The notes beneath the pieces were generated by a model. It searched no databases and had not been told where the DNA came from. It saw only the letters and a list, made by a program, of their open reading frames with translations. Shown here in pieces: positions 757-23,546 of a DNA stretch of 64,000 bases (the stretch's first letter is position 1; each line of letters starts with the position of its first letter). The position numbers were made by a program, and so were the translations under genes. The stretch comes from Candidatus Multivoradales bacterium (GTDB lineage Bacteria; Acidobacteriota; Thermoanaerobaculia; Multivoradales; JAHEKO01). Location: positions 1,440,001 to 1,504,000 of the forward strand of contig CBDCXM010000009.1 in the NCBI GenBank assembly GCA_965223855.1, given 5' to 3'.

Positions 757-1887
757 GTGCAAGAGGAAACCCGGAGAGAGGGGTACGCCGGGCCGCGGTT
801 CACCCTGTGGGGGATCCGGCCCTACGAGCTCTACAGCGCTCTCGCGTTCGTGGCGACCATCGTCTTCCTGCGCTCGCGCGGCATGAGGATGGACTGGAAC
901 ACGATCGACTACACCCTCGGTCCGTTCCTGCCGATGGCGGCGTGGTTGCTCTTCGCCGGAGTCGGCCTTCAGGTGATCTACCACGCGCTCGGCGCGTTGC
1001 GGCGCGGCGAGGGGCTCGGTGGCGGCGTGGTGGCGGTGGGGTCCTATCTGCGCACGGTGGCGACCCCCGGATGGATCGTTCTGTGGCTTCGTCTCTACCT
1101 CGCCTACGCGCTGATGATCTACTGCTACAACTGGCTCAAGGTGACGGTGCCGCTGGTCAATCACCGGCTGTGGGACGCGGAGCTGTTCGATCTCGATCGT
1201 TGGCTCCATCTCGGCATCTCGCCGACGCTCTTCGCCGTCGAGCTGGTCGCCGGCACTCCGTTGGTAGGCCTGATCGACCACTGGTACGCCTTCTGGCTGA
1301 CCACCGTCCTCTACTCGATCACCTTCTTCGTCACCGCGCGCAAGCCGGATCTGCGCTGCGCCTTCCTGCTGTCCTGCGCCTTCCTGTGGACTCTCGGGGC
1401 GCTCATCTACCAGTTGATCCCCGCGCTCGGGCCGATCTACGCCTACGCCGATCACTATCGGGAAGTGCTCCCGGAGCTGCCGAAGGCGGCCCAGGGGCAC
1501 CGGGCCCTGCTCGAGAACTACCAGGTGCTGCTCTCGGGGCGCACCGGCCAGCTCTACCAGTTCAACCCGACCCGCGGTATCGCCGCGATGCCGAGCCTCC
1601 ACGTCGGCGCGCACGTCATGCTGACACTGTGGAGCCGCCGCTTCGTGCGTCCGCTCTACATGCCTTGCGTCGTCGGCACCGGGCTCACCTTCCTCGGTTC
1701 CCTCGTCACCGGTTGGCACTATGCGGTCGACGCCTATGTCGGCACGGCGCTGGCCTTCGGCTGCTATTGGTTCGCCACCTGGCTGGAGGGACTCCAACCG
1801 GCGCCACGGCCGGATGGCCGGGCGGCGGGGTCGGCAGCCGAGGGGAGCCCGTCGAACGAGGGAAGCCCGGACGCTTCCGGTACGTAG
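757..1887 (+). CDS. PAP2-superfamily membrane protein, Aur1/IPC-synthase-like (PAP2_3)
   Basis: Multiple TM segments; motifs AAMPSLHVG and GWHYAVDAYVG; DxxLxxLDRWL segment. Confidence 0.8.
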   Translation: MQEETRREGYAGPRFTLWGIRPYELYSALAFVATIVFLRSRGMRMDWNTIDYTLGPFLPMAAWLLFAGVGLQVIYHALGALRRGEGLGGGVVAVGSYLRTVATPGWIVLWLRLYLAYALMIYCYNWLKVTVPLVNHRLWDAELFDLDRWLHLGISPTLFAVELVAGTPLVGLIDHWYAFWLTTVLYSITFFVTARKPDLRCAFLLSCAFLWTLGALIYQLIPALGPIYAYADHYREVLPELPKAAQGHRALLENYQVLLSGRTGQLYQFNPTRGIAAMPSLHVGAHVMLTLWSRRFVRPLYMPCVVGTGLTFLGSLVTGWHYAVDAYVGTALAFGCYWFATWLEGLQPAPRPDGRAAGSAAEGSPSNEGSPDASGT

Positions 1888-17008: not shown

Positions 17009-18643
17009 GTGAGGAATCGCCTCGGAGCCGCGAGCGTGGTCGCCGGTCGGCCCTCGACGAGGGTCGGTCTGGTGCTGCTCGCCGCCGTCGTGCTCTCTGT
17101 GCCGGTGCTCCTCGCCGCGGGCTCGCAGACCGCCTCAGCCGCCGACGAGGGGCAACGGATGCGCTTCGCCGCGGTCGCCTCGGCCACCGACTACATGCAC
17201 ATCGGAGCCGCGCTCGCCTTCGCGCTGCTCCATCTGTTGCTCTTCGCGTTCTACCGGCGGGAGCGCGGCAATCTCTACTTCGCCGTCTTCGCGCTCGCCT
17301 ACGCCGGGATGACCTGGGGCGGCTATCAGCTCGACCATCCCGAGCCGGATCCGAATGTCCCGAGACTGGTCGCCCTGCTGCGGTTCACCTTCACCTGCGG
17401 CATCGTGCAGGCGTTCACCCTTCAGCGCTTCGCCCACGTCGAGTTCCTCGAGCGCACACCGCGGCTCTTTCACGTGCTTCTGCTCTGGGGCGCAGGCGTC
17501 ATCCTCTGGGTCTGGACCGTCCCCGCGGAGAGCCTGCGGATTCAGCCGGTGATGTACCTGGCGATCGCGACTACTGCCGAGCTGATGCGCACCGTCATCC
17601 TGGCTGCGCGCGGGCCGCGACGCCCCTCGGCGTGGCTGATCTACGTCGGCCTGGCGGCTCTCGCCTTGGCCGGTCTGGTCCAGAGTCTGCTGGCGCTGGG
17701 CGTCTTCGGCGCCTTCCAGCAGCGGGTCTACGCCTATGGCGTGCTGTTCTTCATGCTGGCGATCTCGATCTATCTGTCGCGCCGCTTCGCCACGATCGCC
17801 CTCGAGCTGGAGCATCAGCTGGAGGAGGTGCAGCGGCTGTCGGTCGTCACCCTGGAACAGGAGCGCGAAGCGCGTCGCCGGGAGGTCGAGAGCAGACTGC
17901 TGGAGGCGGAGAACGACCGGCGCGCCCACGAGCTCGAGGAGGCCCGGCGGCTGCAGCTCTCGATGGTGCCCTCCGAGCCGCCGGCCGTGCCCGGGCTCGA
18001 GATCGCGGTTGCGATGGAGACCGCCACCGAGGTCGGCGGCGACTACTACGACTTCCGGGTGGCGGAGGACGGGGCGCTCACTCTCGCCGTCGGCGATGCC
18101 ACCGGTCACGGCCTCAACGCCGGCCTGGTCGTCGCCTCCACCAAGAGCCTCTTCCAGGGGCTTGATGCCGGACGTTCGCTGCCCGAGTCGATGGAGCGGA
18201 TCGATCGCGGACTGCGTGGAATGCGACTGAAGCGACTGGCGATGAGCCTCGTGCTCGCGCGCTACCGCGAGGGCCGGCTGGAGGTTGCGGCGGCGGGGAT
18301 GCCTCCGCTCCTCGTCTATCGTCGGCGGGAACGCCGAGTGGAGGAATGTCTCCTCGCGGCACCGCCGCTCGGCACGCTCAAGGCCCGTACTTTCGAGTCC
18401 CACGAGCTGCAGGTGGGGGAGGGAGACGCCGTGCTCCTCGCCACCGACGGCCTGGTCGAGTTGCTCGACCCCGAGGACCGGGAATTGGGCTACGAGGAGG
18501 CGGCGAGCACCTTCTCTCGTGTCGGCGCCGCGAGCGCCGGCGACGCCGTGGCCGGTCTTCTCGAGCGTGTCGGCGCTTGGGCCTCCGGTCGGCCGCTCGA
18601 GGACGACCTGACCCTGATGGTGTTGCGCCGGCAGGTGAGGTGA
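17009..18643 (+). CDS. Membrane-bound PP2C/SpoIIE (RsbU-like) serine phosphatase with multi-TM sensor region
   Basis: ELEEARRLQLSM; EVGGDYYDF; VGDATGHG; AAGMPP; LATDGLVE; EDDLTL. Confidence 0.9.
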   Translation: MRNRLGAASVVAGRPSTRVGLVLLAAVVLSVPVLLAAGSQTASAADEGQRMRFAAVASATDYMHIGAALAFALLHLLLFAFYRRERGNLYFAVFALAYAGMTWGGYQLDHPEPDPNVPRLVALLRFTFTCGIVQAFTLQRFAHVEFLERTPRLFHVLLLWGAGVILWVWTVPAESLRIQPVMYLAIATTAELMRTVILAARGPRRPSAWLIYVGLAALALAGLVQSLLALGVFGAFQQRVYAYGVLFFMLAISIYLSRRFATIALELEHQLEEVQRLSVVTLEQEREARRREVESRLLEAENDRRAHELEEARRLQLSMVPSEPPAVPGLEIAVAMETATEVGGDYYDFRVAEDGALTLAVGDATGHGLNAGLVVASTKSLFQGLDAGRSLPESMERIDRGLRGMRLKRLAMSLVLARYREGRLEVAAAGMPPLLVYRRRERRVEECLLAAPPLGTLKARTFESHELQVGEGDAVLLATDGLVELLDPEDRELGYEEAASTFSRVGAASAGDAVAGLLERVGAWASGRPLEDDLTLMVLRRQVR

Positions 18644-18682: not shown

Positions 18683-20452
18683 CTAGAGCGGCCACAGGAT
18701 CGGCACCACCAGCAGCAGAACGACGAACGCCAGCGCCGACAGCAGTACGCCAGACTTCACGAAGTCGGAGAAGCGGTAGCCCCCCGGGCCGTAGACCAGC
18801 AGGCAGGCCGGCTCGAACGGCGTGATGAAGGACAACGACGCCGACAGCGTCACCAGCACGGCGAAGCTCCGCGGCTCGACGCCGAGCTGGAGCGCCGTCG
18901 AGACGGCGATCGGCAGCACCACGAGCACCGCTGCGGCGTTGGACAGCGGCTGCGTCAGCACCATCGTCAGGACGGCGAGGGTCGCCATCACCGCGTAGAC
19001 GCCGAACGGTAGCACCCAGCTGACGATCAGCCCGGCGACTACCTCCGCCGCCTCGGTCTTCTGCATTGCCACTCCGAAGGAGGTCATGCCGCCGATCAGG
19101 ATCAGGAGCCGCCACTCGATCAGGCCGTAGATCTCGTGCGGCGTGATGCAGCGCCGGATGACCACGGCGAGCGCCGCCGTCAGCAGCGCGATCGACAACG
19201 GCACGAGGTCGAAGGCGGAGACGAGGACCGCGGCACCGAGAGCGGCGGCCGCGAAGGGCCCCTTGCGACGTCGGAAGGGCACGTGCCCGACCTCGTCGAG
19301 CAGTCGAAGGTCGCCGCTCATCTGTAGCGCCTCGAGCGCCTCCTCCCGTCCCTGGAGCAGGAGCACGTCGCCCACCCTGAGCGGCAGCTCACGGATGTCG
19401 CGCGCGACGTTACGGCCGCCGCGGTGCACCGCCAGCACGGAGATGCCGAACCGCTCGCGGAAGGCGAGAGCTCGCAGACTGCGCCCGGCGAAATCCGAGG
19501 AGCCGACGACGAACGCTTCCACGAGCTTGGCACCCTCGGCGACCAGATCGGCGTCGCCCAGAGCCGAGTCTGTTTCCAGGCGCAGGTCGGTGCGGTCCTT
19601 GGTCTCGAGCAGCGCCTCGCGGGTCGCTTCGACGACCAGCAGGTCGCCTTCCTGCAGCCGGGTCTTCGGCCGAGGCACGATCCGCTCTTCGCCTCGCACC
19701 AGCACGGCGACGAGGAAGCCCTGCTTGGAGAGCCCGGCCTCGCGCAGGGTCCGCCCCGCGAGCTCCGATCCCTCGGTGACGAGCACGGTGGACAGGTAGT
19801 CCTCGATCTCGTACTTCTCGCTCAGACTGCCGGGCGCCGCCTTCGGCATCAGGCGCGAGCCGACGAACAACAGGTAGAGGATGCCGAGCACGACGATGAT
19901 CAATCCGATCGGTGTGAACTCGAAGAAGGAGAAGGGCTCGTAGCCGAGCTGCTCGAGAAGGCCGCTGGCGGCCAGGTTGGTGGAGGTGCCGATCAGGGTG
20001 CAGGTGCCGCCCAGGATCGAGGCGAAGGCGAGCGGCATCAGCAGCCGCGACGCGCCGAAGCCCGCCTTCTTCGCCAGTTCGGTCGCCGACGGAACCAGCA
20101 CTGCGGTCGAGTTGGTATTGCTGACGACCGCCGACAGCGCCGCCGACAGGGAGCACAACGTGACGAGGATCCGGCTCTCCGAGCGCCCTGCGATCTTGAG
20201 GATCGCCTGCGCCAGCCACCCCATGACGCCGGTCTTGACCAGCGCCGCCGACAGCACGAACACCGACGCCAGCACGATGATGATCTCGTTGGCGAAGCCG
20301 GCGAACGCCTCGTCGGGGGTGAGGATGCCGGCCAGCACCAGCACGACGAGGACGAGCAGGGTGACGACGTCGATCGCCAGCCACTCGAAGGTGAAACAGG
20401 CCATCGCCGCGACCAGCAGGCCGAGGACGAGGGCGATCTCGAAGGTGATCAC
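18683..20452 (-). CDS. SLC13 family permease with two TrkA-C domains
   Basis: SAVVSNT; LMPLAFASILGGTCTLIGTSTNL; TQPLSNAAA; GPGGYRFSDF; GTG start supported by TATCCT 6 nt upstream. Confidence 0.9.
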   Translation of the reverse strand: MITFEIALVLGLLVAAMACFTFEWLAIDVVTLLVLVVLVLAGILTPDEAFAGFANEIIIVLASVFVLSAALVKTGVMGWLAQAILKIAGRSESRILVTLCSLSAALSAVVSNTNSTAVLVPSATELAKKAGFGASRLLMPLAFASILGGTCTLIGTSTNLAASGLLEQLGYEPFSFFEFTPIGLIIVVLGILYLLFVGSRLMPKAAPGSLSEKYEIEDYLSTVLVTEGSELAGRTLREAGLSKQGFLVAVLVRGEERIVPRPKTRLQEGDLLVVEATREALLETKDRTDLRLETDSALGDADLVAEGAKLVEAFVVGSSDFAGRSLRALAFRERFGISVLAVHRGGRNVARDIRELPLRVGDVLLLQGREEALEALQMSGDLRLLDEVGHVPFRRRKGPFAAAALGAAVLVSAFDLVPLSIALLTAALAVVIRRCITPHEIYGLIEWRLLILIGGMTSFGVAMQKTEAAEVVAGLIVSWVLPFGVYAVMATLAVLTMVLTQPLSNAAAVLVVLPIAVSTALQLGVEPRSFAVLVTLSASLSFITPFEPACLLVYGPGGYRFSDFVKSGVLLSALAFVVLLLVVPILWPL

Positions 20453-20538
20453 CGCGGCAGGATAGCTGACCGGCACGCGAGGATGGTCGAGATGCGGGCT
20501 GTCGCAGGTCGTCGTTCGCGACCGGTATGCTCCGTGCC

Positions 20539-20973
20539 GTGTACATCCTCACGCGCAACGTCGGGCAGTCGGTCCGGATCAGCGACGACCCATTGGAGGA
20601 TCCGGCCCGCGACGACGACCTGGTGGTGGCCGTCGAAGGTATCGACGGCAGTCGGGTGCGGCTGTCGGCCTCCAGCGTCGCGCCGCTGGCTCTCTACCTG
20701 GAGGAAGAGAGGGGTCGAGCCTTCTCCAGCGGCGAGTCACCGGTTCCGCTGCCGGTCGGCGCCGACGGCCGGGTGTCCTTCGAGCGCCGGGTCGGCGAGG
20801 GGTTCTACCTCGACGACGACAACGACACCGGCCTTTTCGTCCTCGGCATCAGAGACGGGGAGATCAGAATGGGCATGACCGGCTTCGACCGGCGCCGGTT
20901 CCTGGCACAGGAGGCCTGGGAGCGGTCGCGCGATGCCCGGGCGAAGGCGCGCGGGGAACGCGCCGCGGACTGA
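20539..20973 (+). CDS. Tandem (two-domain) CsrA/RsmA-like protein
   Basis: GTG start gives MYILTRNVGQSVRI...VVAVEGIDGSRVRL; second copy SFERRVGEGFYL...LFVLGIRDGEIRMG; compare CsrA [33 protein letters not shown]. Confidence 0.65.
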   Translation: MYILTRNVGQSVRISDDPLEDPARDDDLVVAVEGIDGSRVRLSASSVAPLALYLEEERGRAFSSGESPVPLPVGADGRVSFERRVGEGFYLDDDNDTGLFVLGIRDGEIRMGMTGFDRRRFLAQEAWERSRDARAKARGERAAD

Positions 20974-20991
20974 GTTTCACCGCCTGCGCGG

Positions 20992-22155
20992 TCAGGGGCA
21001 GATTTCGACGACTGTCTCCCGGGCGCCACAATCCCAACGGACCTTGAACTCGTGCTCCCCGGGCTCGAGGCCGGGGAAGGCGACGCGGGCTCGGCCGTTC
21101 GGCTTGAGAATGCCGCTCTGGGTCCGGCTGTCATCGACGGTCACGGTGAAGCGCGCGCGAGCCTCCCCTCCCTTGAGGTGCACGACGCCGAGCCCGTTGG
21201 GCCGGCACAGCGTCCTCGCGACCGTCTCCGTGTCCCGGCACTCGCCCGGCTTGCGACGCTCGAGCAGGTAGTCCACCCAGTCGTTCCTGAACCGGGCGTT
21301 GATCGCCGGCACGTGCCCCGATCCGTCGAGCGTCCAGAGCTCGACCGAGCCTCCGGGCCGGCAGCGCCTCTCGTAGCGTTCGATCGTCGTCTCCGGCCCC
21401 GGTACGGCGGCATCGAGGTTGACGTTGCGGGGGTCCGTTTCCGGCATCAGTGAGCACTGGTTGCGCCGCGCCAGCAACCGGGCCGTCCTTCGTGCTCCGG
21501 GGTACTTCGGCAGTCCGAAGATCCTCCCGCCGTTGTAGAAAATGATGTCGTCCGCCGTGCCGTGGATCTGCAGCACGTAGACCGGCTCCGAGGGGCGGCA
21601 GGCAGGCCCGCGGTCGAAGGTGGTCCCGGCGAGGCTGGCGATCGCCGCCACCTTGTCGGTGTGCTCGCACGCCATGCGGTGCGACATGAAGCCCCCGTTC
21701 GACAGCCCGCCGAAGTAGATCCGTCGCGGATCGATGTTGCACTGCGCCTCGAACGCCTCCACGAGGGTGCGAAGATAGGTCGCATCATCGACACCGGAGC
21801 CGAAGATGTCGCAGCAGGCGTCGGTGGCGTTCCAGAACCTCTCGCCGCGTGAGTTTCGCGTCCCGTCCGGGTAGGCGACGATGAAGCCCTTCAGCTCGGA
21901 CTGCTGCTCGATTCCCATGTACTGGGCGTGAAGCGCGCCGCTGCTGTTGAACGGGTGGAGCAGCACGATCAGCGGTGTCGGCCGCAGCGGGTCGTAGTCG
22001 GCGGGGACGTTGAAGCCGACCGGGCCGCGGCCGAGGTCGATCGATGCGCGACAGTCGGCGGCCGTCTGGGCGAAGCCGGCGGCGGTCGCGACGAGAAGGA
22101 GAAGAGCCGCAGCGGCGAGCGGCAGGGGAGCGGACGGGAGGGTTCTGAAGCTCAT
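20992..22155 (-). CDS. Secreted PHB-depolymerase/LpqC-like alpha/beta-hydrolase esterase with C-terminal extra domain
   Basis: Signal peptide; PLIVLLH; YPDG; WNATDACC; GLSNGGFM nucleophile elbow; IHGTADD; GSGH. Confidence 0.85.
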   Translation of the reverse strand: MSFRTLPSAPLPLAAAALLLLVATAAGFAQTAADCRASIDLGRGPVGFNVPADYDPLRPTPLIVLLHPFNSSGALHAQYMGIEQQSELKGFIVAYPDGTRNSRGERFWNATDACCDIFGSGVDDATYLRTLVEAFEAQCNIDPRRIYFGGLSNGGFMSHRMACEHTDKVAAIASLAGTTFDRGPACRPSEPVYVLQIHGTADDIIFYNGGRIFGLPKYPGARRTARLLARRNQCSLMPETDPRNVNLDAAVPGPETTIERYERRCRPGGSVELWTLDGSGHVPAINARFRNDWVDYLLERRKPGECRDTETVARTLCRPNGLGVVHLKGGEARARFTVTVDDSRTQSGILKPNGRARVAFPGLEPGEHEFKVRWDCGARETVVEICP

Positions 22156-22337
22156 GGCGGCGCGAGCTTACACGGAAGGTGCTGTCCGCTTCGAGTCTCG
22201 AGCTACCGGCTCTGCAAAGCAAAAAGTCAGATTTCATCGACAGTTACCGGTGGGCGAAACTTGGTCGGGCGACGAAAGAGGCCGAAAAGGGGGCACAATG
22301 GTGCGGGCGCGGCCCAGGCACCGGGCTCCGGAGACTC

Positions 22338-23546
22338 GTGATCGCAGGCGACGACACAGCAGCGAGCGCCGCCCCTCGCCGCCCGACGGGGGCGCTCGAG
22401 AGACCGGGAGTCCATGTCCGGGAGCTGACCTTCGCCATCCGACCGATCTCGGGGGCTCCGACCTCGGTCGCCGGTTTCGTCGGCCAGGCCGTGCGTGGCC
22501 CGGTAGACCCGCGAGTGGTCGATAGTCCGGGTGAGTTCGAGCGCCTCTACGGCGGTACGACCGACGCCTCGTTCCTCGCACAGGCGGTGCGCGGCTTCTT
22601 CGAGAACGGTGGCCGCCGCTGCCATGTGGCCCGCGTCGAGGGAGCGGCGGGAAAGGAGGCGAGCGCCGACGACTACATCGGCGACCGCTCGCTGCCGCCG
22701 GGCGGGCGCACCGGCCTGGCGGCGCTCGAGGGGATCGACGAGATCTCTCTGCTCTGCGCACCGGACGAGGTGCGGCGAGCGCCCAACGACCTCTCTCGGG
22801 TCACCGCTGCGGTCGTCGAACAGTGCGAGCGCCGTCGCGACCGGATGGGCATCCTCGCGATGACGGCAGGGCAGGGCGATCCGCGTAACCTTCCGCCGCT
22901 TCCGAACACCTCCTGGGCGGCGCTCTATCACCCGTGGATCGAAGTTCCCGGCCTGCCGCGACGCACGTCTCGCGAACTCGTGCCCGCGAGCGGCCACGTG
23001 GCGGGCGTCTTCGCGCGTGTCGCCGAGCACCGTGGAGTGCACAAGGCGCCGGCCGGCGAGGAGCTGCGCGGTGTGACGGCGCTCGAGCTCGATGTCACCG
23101 ACGCGGTCCAGGCCGAGCTCAACCCGCTCGGGATCAACTGCCTTCGGGACTTCCGCACCAGTGGTCGCGGCATCGTCGTCTGGGGAGCGCGAACGCTCGC
23201 TCCGGCGTCCGAGTGGCGGTTCGTCAACGTTCGACGGCTGTCCATCTTCATCGAGGAGTCGATCGAGGAGGGGCTGGAATGGGTGGTGTTCGAGCCCAAC
23301 GAGCAGCGCACCTGGGACCGGATCGTCGCTTCGGTGGAGGCGTTCCTGCTCGCGCTGTGGCGCGACGGGGCCCTGCTCGGGTCCTCCGCGGACGCCGCCT
23401 TCTTCGTTCGCTGCGACCGGTCGACGACTACGCAGGCCGATCTCGACCGCGGGCTGTGCGTCGTCGAGGTCGGTTTCGCGCCGCTGAGACCGGCCGAGTT
23501 CCTCGTGCTGACCCTGGTCACGAAGACCCTCGCCGCCGGCGACTGA
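22338..23546 (+). CDS. Contractile phage-tail sheath family protein (eCIS/Afp-type), orphan
   Basis: PGVHVRE...PTSVAGFVG...RGP; FFENGG; LYHPWI; PASGHVAGV; GVHKAPA; LNPLGINCLR; VWGARTL; VNVRRL; WVVFEPN; AFFVRCD; APLRPAEF. Start uncertain (GTG 22338 after GGAG). Confidence 0.9.
   Translation: MIAGDDTAASAAPRRPTGALERPGVHVRELTFAIRPISGAPTSVAGFVGQAVRGPVDPRVVDSPGEFERLYGGTTDASFLAQAVRGFFENGGRRCHVARVEGAAGKEASADDYIGDRSLPPGGRTGLAALEGIDEISLLCAPDEVRRAPNDLSRVTAAVVEQCERRRDRMGILAMTAGQGDPRNLPPLPNTSWAALYHPWIEVPGLPRRTSRELVPASGHVAGVFARVAEHRGVHKAPAGEELRGVTALELDVTDAVQAELNPLGINCLRDFRTSGRGIVVWGARTLAPASEWRFVNVRRLSIFIEESIEEGLEWVVFEPNEQRTWDRIVASVEAFLLALWRDGALLGSSADAAFFVRCDRSTTTQADLDRGLCVVEVGFAPLRPAEFLVLTLVTKTLAAGD

Follow-up and report, generated by a model that had tools for sequence, protein, structure and literature searches.

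The open reading frame at positions 20539-20973 on the plus strand of the window, by which the whole stretch of 64,000 nucleotides analysed here is meant, is a real gene, and the alignments described below document that both halves of its product are CsrA-like, i.e., that the gene carries a double CsrA ancestry. Taken together, the evidence tips slightly towards the view that this product is a degenerate single-chain CsrA pseudo-dimer which has lost both of its RNA faces and which, if it acts at all, would do so via a new surface.

The CsrA-like open reading frame

20539-20973, plus strand: CsrA-like open reading frame, 144 codons translated from GTG, with a TGA stop at 20971-20973
20527-20538, plus strand: candidate four-codon N-terminal extension, starting at an upstream ATG (148-residue form, P0002)

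The GTG at 20539 is located 7 nt downstream of TATGCT, and translation from there to the TGA yields the very same 144 residues that were quoted in the original prediction. An in-frame ATG at 20527 would extend the protein by four residues, and it is this ATG, not the GTG, at which the public gene call (P0002, 148 aa) starts; using the GTG, residues 2-6 were found to be in register with the CsrA N-terminus in the MAFFT alignments. Inspection of the local sequence identified neither a Shine-Dalgarno-like nor a promoter-like site for either of the two starts, and both GTG and ATG are retained as candidate starts. Likewise, a simple scan of positions 20300-21200 revealed no promoter-like site, no sigma-70-like site and no terminator-like site, and the window was found to contain no Rfam family and no tRNA gene.

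The G+C content of the window is 68% and long spurious open reading frames are abundant in it, and as a consequence the intact frame alone is to be considered weak evidence. The G+C content by codon position was determined to be 0.73/0.49/0.88 (GC3 0.876), a pattern that is also found in the neighbouring genes (GC3 0.83-0.92) and that is absent from the two shifted frames of the same stretch, thus identifying the frame as the coding one and its codon usage as native. The contigs of four DNA runs (X1-X4) carry the stretch without any indel and the interior of the open reading frame without any change; these runs derive from two samples of one study and may be the source of the assembly, for which reason they do not count as independent support. 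Among the public runs, no RNA run carrying the stretch is listed.

Two CsrA-derived modules in one chain

20539-20706, plus strand: half 1 (residues 1-56), strands b1-b5, as defined by the alignment to 14 CsrAs, the structure model and its overlay with 1vpz_A
20707-20769, plus strand: helix and linker between the halves (residues 57-77), gapless as compared to the linker of the relative P0003 (see below), pLDDT 89-91
20770-20922, plus strand: half 2 (residues 78-128), strands b1'-b4' plus a segment in the b5 columns, as defined by the alignment, hhalign (E 2e-4) and the model

As reference, 14 single CsrAs were used, namely the canonical CsrA P0004, 12 sequences of the phylum and one sequence contributed by a family relative. 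Each half was aligned separately to these 14 sequences using MAFFT; a joint alignment of tandem and single sequences was found to be misaligned and was left out. Both halves align column for column with CsrA, which bears out the earlier claim of two tandem CsrA-like copies; unlike the homodimer formed by canonical CsrA chains of roughly 60 residues, the protein is a single chain of 144 residues with two modules.

Profile searches returned a more graded picture. The Pfam CsrA model (PF02599) matches the whole protein in two stretches with 26.8 bits (E 5e-6) and hence does not reach its cut-off of 27, while the NCBIfam CsrA models (TIGR00202, NF002469), also matching in two stretches, score 25.9-29.5 bits and stay far below their cut-offs of 70.1-73. 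It had been proposed to search each half on its own: half 1 is recognized by the Pfam model with 20.3 bits, but half 2 alone yields no Pfam match, so that this check gave scores below the cut-off for the first half and for the whole chain and none for the second half. A phmmer search of the PDB placed residues 1-60 on RsmE (2jpp) and residues 82-129 on the CsrA of three species (1vpz, 2bti, 1y00), with E values of 0.14-0.8 for both halves. Comparing half 2 to a profile built from half 1 and the 14 CsrAs by hhalign gave E 2e-4 in the same register, and the direct comparison of both halves is weak (E 0.074, 23% identity). The nearest clusters in the ESM Atlas are of the CsrA type, but score only 0.77-0.80 and were taken as a lead only.

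The RNA faces and the acidic core

CsrA obligately forms a homodimer, which uses its two identical faces to bridge two RNA sites. According to one report (PMC7652899), each of these faces combines b1 of one subunit with b5 of its partner, with L4 and R44 being particularly critical and the R44A exchange abolishing both binding and regulation. According to a second report (PMC6692469), the alanine mutants of E. coli CsrA with the strongest RNA-binding phenotypes are those of R44, V42, L2, I47, V40, L4, R6 and R7, and the R6-E46 salt bridge is described there as indispensable for the CsrA structure. The residues found in the corresponding columns are the following.

CsrA L2 column: Y2 in half 1, V79 in half 2
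CsrA L4 column: L4 in half 1, F81 in half 2
CsrA R6 column: R6 in half 1, R83 in half 2
CsrA R7 column: N7 in half 1, R84 in half 2
CsrA V40 column: L50 in half 1, R119 in half 2
CsrA V42 column: L52 in half 1, F121 in half 2
CsrA R44 column: L54 in half 1, A123 in half 2
CsrA E46 column: E56 in half 1, E125 in half 2
CsrA I47 column: unaligned for half 1 in the alignment to the 14 CsrAs (E57 in another alignment), A126 in half 2
20698-20700, plus strand: codon in the Arg44 column of half 1, CTG, Leu54 (Arg in 14 of 14 aligned CsrAs)
20905-20907, plus strand: codon in the Arg44 column of half 2, GCA, Ala123 (Arg in 14 of 14 aligned CsrAs)
20584-20613, plus strand: acidic insertion of ten residues (16-25) in the b2-b3 loop of half 1, a gap in 14 of 14 CsrAs and in P0003, pLDDT 65-70

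In the MAFFT alignments, the motifs LYLEE (half 1) and FLAQE (half 2) fall on VHREE of the canonical CsrA P0004, and the replacement of Arg44 by Leu and Ala, which had originally been read from an alignment by eye, was thus reproduced against a column that is Arg in all 14 single CsrAs and in both halves of P0003. Also the acidic insertion noted for copy 1 between strands 2 and 3 was recovered, precisely as residues 16-25, which none of the 14 CsrAs possesses; the insertion in half 2 comprises two residues in the same kind of alignment. Counted over the eight critical residues, each composite face retains two unchanged, these being L4 and R6 on the one and R83 and R84 on the other. In the L2 and L4 columns the hydrophobic character is retained, with identity only at L4, and neither half has conserved the A36-P37 columns of the b4-b5 loop. 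The columns R6 and E46 are invariant, with both halves included (R6/E56 and R83/E125), and the Arg6-Glu46 salt bridge would hence be kept in both cross-pairs. Together with the core glycines and the hydrophobic residues, these pairs constitute the fold-keeping residues that have been retained; the equivalents of R31 are kept in both halves, too (R41, R110).

The charge of the protein was found to differ markedly from that of the canonical family member. Residues 1-128, i.e., the core, carry a net charge of -10.5 (pI 4.46), as compared to +1.6 (pI 9.7) for residues 1-55 of the canonical CsrA P0004, while P0003 is nearly neutral (-1.4) and the C-terminal tail of the protein (residues 129-144) is positive (+2.8). 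Considering that Arg44 is replaced on both faces, that further face residues are changed and that the core is strongly acidic, binding of canonical GGA sites is unlikely, and its loss in this protein, as anticipated by the original prediction, is regarded as probable from these sequence features.

Predicted structure

20890-20970, plus strand: predicted long C-terminal helix (residues 118-144; helix 118-143 in the model, pLDDT about 75)

Given the sequence alone, AlphaFold returned a best model with a pLDDT of 69, the remaining four models ranging from 39 to 48. Adding P0003 as second alignment row raised the best pLDDT to 81.9 (pTM 0.72; five models, 77.9-81.9), with this better model thus resting on an alignment of two rows, i.e., the protein and P0003. 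In the better model, half 1 is predicted to possess all five strands (b1-b5: 2-7, 11-14, 28-36, 39-46, 52-54), followed by a helix formed by residues 55-64, and half 2 to possess strands b1'-b4' (78-84, 88-91, 97-105, 108-114) and no b5' strand. The place of the expected b5' is taken by the predicted C-terminal helix, which starts with RRR (R118-R120) and ends in the basic tail.

Structural comparison of the better model with 48,161 chains using VIA-align revealed that residues 1-65 overlay with the P. aeruginosa CsrA 1vpz_A (Z 5.0, rmsd 1.8 Å, 55 of 57 residues, 33% identity), in a result in which generic beta-sandwich and FHA rows (Z 5-7.3) outrank CsrA. The near-complete overlay with 1vpz_A is nevertheless taken to be telling, as the shape of that CsrA chain only makes sense inside the interdigitated dimer. 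With the weaker model obtained earlier, no CsrA was present among the 50 rows listed by VIA-align. Foldseek identified no match for either model in the PDB at E <= 0.001; there, CsrA is seemingly deposited only as separate short chains, such as the CsrA of 5Z38, which appears as a chain of 71 residues, and as a single-chain pseudo-dimer would seemingly lack a single-chain target, this blank says little. In the BFVD, eight of the best ten Foldseek rows are phage proteins of 85-177 residues, aligned over 113-144 columns with a probability of 0.99-1.00, for which the TM score normalised by target is 0.35-0.73 and E is 0.013-0.095, hence none <= 0.001; one of these phage matches is named carbon storage regulator (A0A6J5RUQ1, 114 aa). 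Prediction of a complex between half 1 and half 2, each with the 14 CsrAs as alignment, scored 0.25 and 0.28 and stayed below the mark of 0.32.

On the basis of these models, the protein is likely to adopt an intrachain CsrA-type fold with a remodelled second b5. The structure prediction that had been put forward as a check for an intramolecular CsrA dimer thus agrees for half 1, which shows CsrA topology and superimposes on 1vpz_A at 1.8 Å, but not for the b5' segment of half 2, which is predicted to be helical.

A rare tandem-CsrA lineage

An exhaustive HMMER search of 1.84 billion representative proteins identified one single relative, P0003 (E 1.1e-5), a metagenomic protein of 121 residues with the source label 'carbon storage regulator', which is known from contigs of at most 1,056 bp only. 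Compared pairwise, both proteins match over residues 3-129 with E 1e-16 and 31-34% identity. P0003 possesses two clean CsrA domains (105.3 bits) and has in common with the 144-residue protein that two CsrA-homologous modules are encoded by one open reading frame and are joined by the same linker. This linker is of the same length and aligns without a gap, R60, A61, P68, D76 and G77 being identical, followed by R78 and V79; moreover, both proteins have half-specific residues in common, namely Y53 in half 1 and Q124 in half 2. The gapless linker with its common residues and the common half-specific residues point to one fusion event. As for a b5 arginine on at least one face, P0003 carries it in both halves, whereas the 144-residue protein carries it in neither. 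The latter is therefore regarded as the more degenerate copy and P0003 as the better-preserved member of a rare tandem-CsrA lineage, and the homologue survey that had been proposed supports tandem-CsrA ancestry by this one relative.

Further searches did not enlarge the lineage. Word-index protein searches recovered, apart from the protein itself, just P0003 and an ordinary CsrA of 73 residues, and a pattern search with the two-row alignment identified no relative among 137 matches in genome contigs and 96 in viral contigs. When metagenome contigs were searched with a degenerate DNA pattern of the junction motif, none of the 120 matches listed was CsrA-like. Searching plasmids and phages by tblastn with the 144-residue protein gave no match, and with P0003 as query 85 phage records were hit; for the 30 rows listed, a single stretch of about 150-240 bp accounts for both halves of P0003, identifying those phage genes as single CsrAs. 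No homologue of the 144-residue protein was found in 40 relatives (four congeners, 20 genomes from the family and 16 from the order), and the tandem profile found no CsrA-like gene in 400 genomes of the class. Four weak matches at class level (22-24 bits) were rejected, as they are located in open frames of 126-895 residues, three of them with at least 517 residues, which are not CsrA-like.

Genomic context

18683-20476, minus strand: CitMHS/TrkA_C transporter gene, divergent, upstream of the CsrA-like gene
20477-20538, no strand assigned: spacer of 62 bp to the divergent transporter gene, without a sigma-70-like site by simple scan
20992-22155, convergent: PHB-esterase-like gene, downstream of the CsrA-like gene

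The CsrA-like gene stands alone on the plus strand. Two further genes of the surroundings were recorded as observations in their own right. Positions 22179-23543 (plus strand) hold a lone phage-tail-sheath-like gene (Phage_sheath_1 53.9 bits, Phage_sheath_1C 50.4 bits), which is flanked by the esterase-like gene on one side and by a TonB-dependent receptor on the other; according to the list of open reading frames, its neighbours include no further tail genes and no injection-system genes. The listed start of this gene is probably too far upstream. Positions 17009-18640 (plus strand) encode a membrane sensor phosphatase combining 7TMR-DISM_7TM (46.4 bits) with a SpoIIE-type PP2C domain (115.5 bits), and this gene ends 43 bp from the 3' end of the convergent transporter gene.

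In the host genome, which is 92% complete, the gene is the sole CsrA-family match; a FliW match was not found in it, and the one flagellin match is sub-threshold (21.3 bits). Among the 40 relatives, Pfam CsrA matched once (L003, G023:C243, positions 832-1035, minus strand, 71.7 bits), and as the contig in question is very short (1,741 bp), this CsrA could be a binning contaminant or part of a mobile element. In 400 other genomes of the phylum, the tandem profile matched in 59, the matches listed comprising one CsrA unit each, except for ten that run across a stop codon. Five of these ten were examined, and each turned out to be a single csrA behind another gene; in both loci tested (L126 and L127 of genomes G285 and G265), this preceding gene is fliW (117.6 and 120.4 bits), which ends one stop codon ahead of the csrA start. 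CsrA of this phylum, where present, is of the flagellar type, for which a fliW gene, usually adjacent to csrA, is characteristic; the 59 matching genomes of the phylum contrast with the 400 of the class, where nothing CsrA-like was found.

In the congeners G003 and G002, the transporter orthologues have other genes upstream, and the side of the transporter that faces the CsrA-like gene is a synteny break-point. In G003, a gene rich in CxxCH haem motifs (L144, C12, positions 1-417) precedes the transporter orthologue (70% identity) on the same strand. Within 2.5 kb of 80 transporter loci from named genomes, no CsrA-like gene was found, the nearest of these genomes being MAGs labelled Thermoanaerobaculia and Acidobacteriota. 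Within a lineage that lacks a Csr system, the gene is hence a singleton at species level; that it arrived very recently is disfavoured by its native codon usage.

Proposed model and alternative explanations

The model suggested here assumes that two CsrA modules of one chain, connected via a short helix and a linker of roughly 13 residues, would fold onto each other so as to mimic the interdigitation of two CsrA subunits, resulting in a monomeric pseudo-dimer. The protein would descend from the rare tandem-CsrA lineage of which P0003 is the better-preserved member, and in the course of this descent both faces would have lost Arg44 and most of the other face residues, the core would have turned strongly acidic and the second b5 strand would have become part of the predicted long helix. 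Such a protein would no longer repress translation by clamping GGA motifs. Instead, the leucine-lined b5/b1' face together with the acidic loops may form a new surface that binds a protein or a basic ligand, and the protein might serve as a species-specific accessory protein in a lineage lacking the Csr system. That a new binding surface has arisen and the protein works as a small acidic binding module is a serious possibility, albeit one falling somewhat short of an even chance; the stricter version, namely that the CsrA fold was exapted as an acidic protein- or ligand-binding module and RNA binding was abandoned on both faces, in a bacterial class (relatives labelled Thermoanaerobaculia) devoid of any Csr system, appears rather doubtful. 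If this exaptation holds true, the protein would be the first member of the CsrA family with a function unrelated to RNA.

Two further explanations have to be weighed against this model of a degenerate pseudo-dimer. The CsrA fold retained in the model, the kept R31 equivalents (R41, R110), R83/R84 in b1', R118-R120, of which R119 (V40 column) resides on the side of A123, and the Arg-rich C-terminal helix with its tail of +2.8 would all be in line with an RNA-binding regulator of altered specificity, which, via its relocated arginines, would recognize non-GGA or structured RNA, possibly by one face only. This is considered unlikely, as Arg44 is gone from both faces, both halves deviate from CsrA in the A36-P37 columns, no b5' strand is present in the model and the core, unlike the basic core of canonical CsrA, carries a net charge of -10.5. 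Quite unlikely, too, is that the gene constitutes a relic, i.e., a horizontally acquired tandem CsrA which became functionless in a host lacking Csr targets, which is drifting and whose frame is open only since stops are rare in high-GC DNA. A relic would fit an orphan with one relative among 1.84 billion representatives, its absence from the 40 relatives (including four species of the same genus) and from 400 class genomes, the non-conserved neighbourhood (G003, G002 and the 80 transporter loci), the loss of key residues on both faces and the frequency of long spurious open reading frames in this DNA. However, the residues determining the fold, both R6-E46 pairs among them, are preserved, AlphaFold folds the protein with confidence, the G+C content by codon position is that of a native, translated gene and not of a recent arrival, and no frameshifts occur in two samples, albeit these are not independent.

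The original prediction had also considered a decoy for FliW-like partners of CsrA, or a dominant-negative protein, which would poison the CsrA of the cell. CsrA faces do bind protein antagonists, and in PMC5864733 the patch bound by CesT is reported to overlap with the RNA site; the residues contacted by CesT, as given there, include R44, which is absent here. As the 92%-complete genome contains neither a FliW match nor a second CsrA, the flagellin match stays at 21.3 bits and none of the 400 class genomes sampled holds a CsrA-like gene by the tandem profile, neither a partner to be titrated nor a CsrA to be poisoned was found, and a covalently fused pseudo-dimer would moreover be badly placed to poison another dimer. 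This idea is thus rendered highly improbable.

The degenerate pseudo-dimer, as favoured here, would be a natural extreme case with which to examine the capabilities of a CsrA fold that has lost its RNA site. The gene and P0003 show that natural CsrA fusion occurs, and after fusion each face is free to diverge on its own, the key arginine having been lost on both in the present case. The weight of this is limited by the protein being an orphan without orthologues among the genomes searched and without a testable host.

Comparison with known systems

RsmN/RsmF of Pseudomonas aeruginosa belongs to the CsrA family and, despite a rearranged order of secondary-structure elements, still has the family fold; it forms homodimers, carries the conserved arginine and binds GGA, whereas the protein described here is a fused pair without this arginine. 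To the canonical proteins CsrA, RsmA and RsmE (PF02599; 1vpz, 2jpp, 1y00, 2bti) the likeness is that each half aligns over b1-b5 and that the R6 and E46 columns are kept. They differ in that canonical CsrA is a homodimer with Arg44, while here one chain of 144 residues is found, with acidic insertions and an acidic core and with the second b5 predicted to be helical. P0003 shares the two-module architecture and the linker length, but possesses both arginines and lacks the acidic insertion. The likeness to the BFVD phage proteins of 85-118 residues is one at the level of models, extending over 113-144 columns, with no sequence relation detected.

A search of the full-text literature found no paper on natural fused CsrAs, and covalently fused, asymmetric CsrAs are to date known from descriptions of engineered tools only. 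The respective protein, Re-CsrA (Ye et al. 2018, PMC5864733; 5Z38), is an engineered covalent fusion of two CsrA units via a short linker, precisely CsrA 1-44, a ten-residue Gly/Ser linker and full CsrA, with wild-type faces; it is reported to fold, to bind RNA and to bind CesT as a defined one-site protein. As compared to Re-CsrA, the 144-residue protein is natural, it has kept the first helix within its linker, and neither of its faces is intact.
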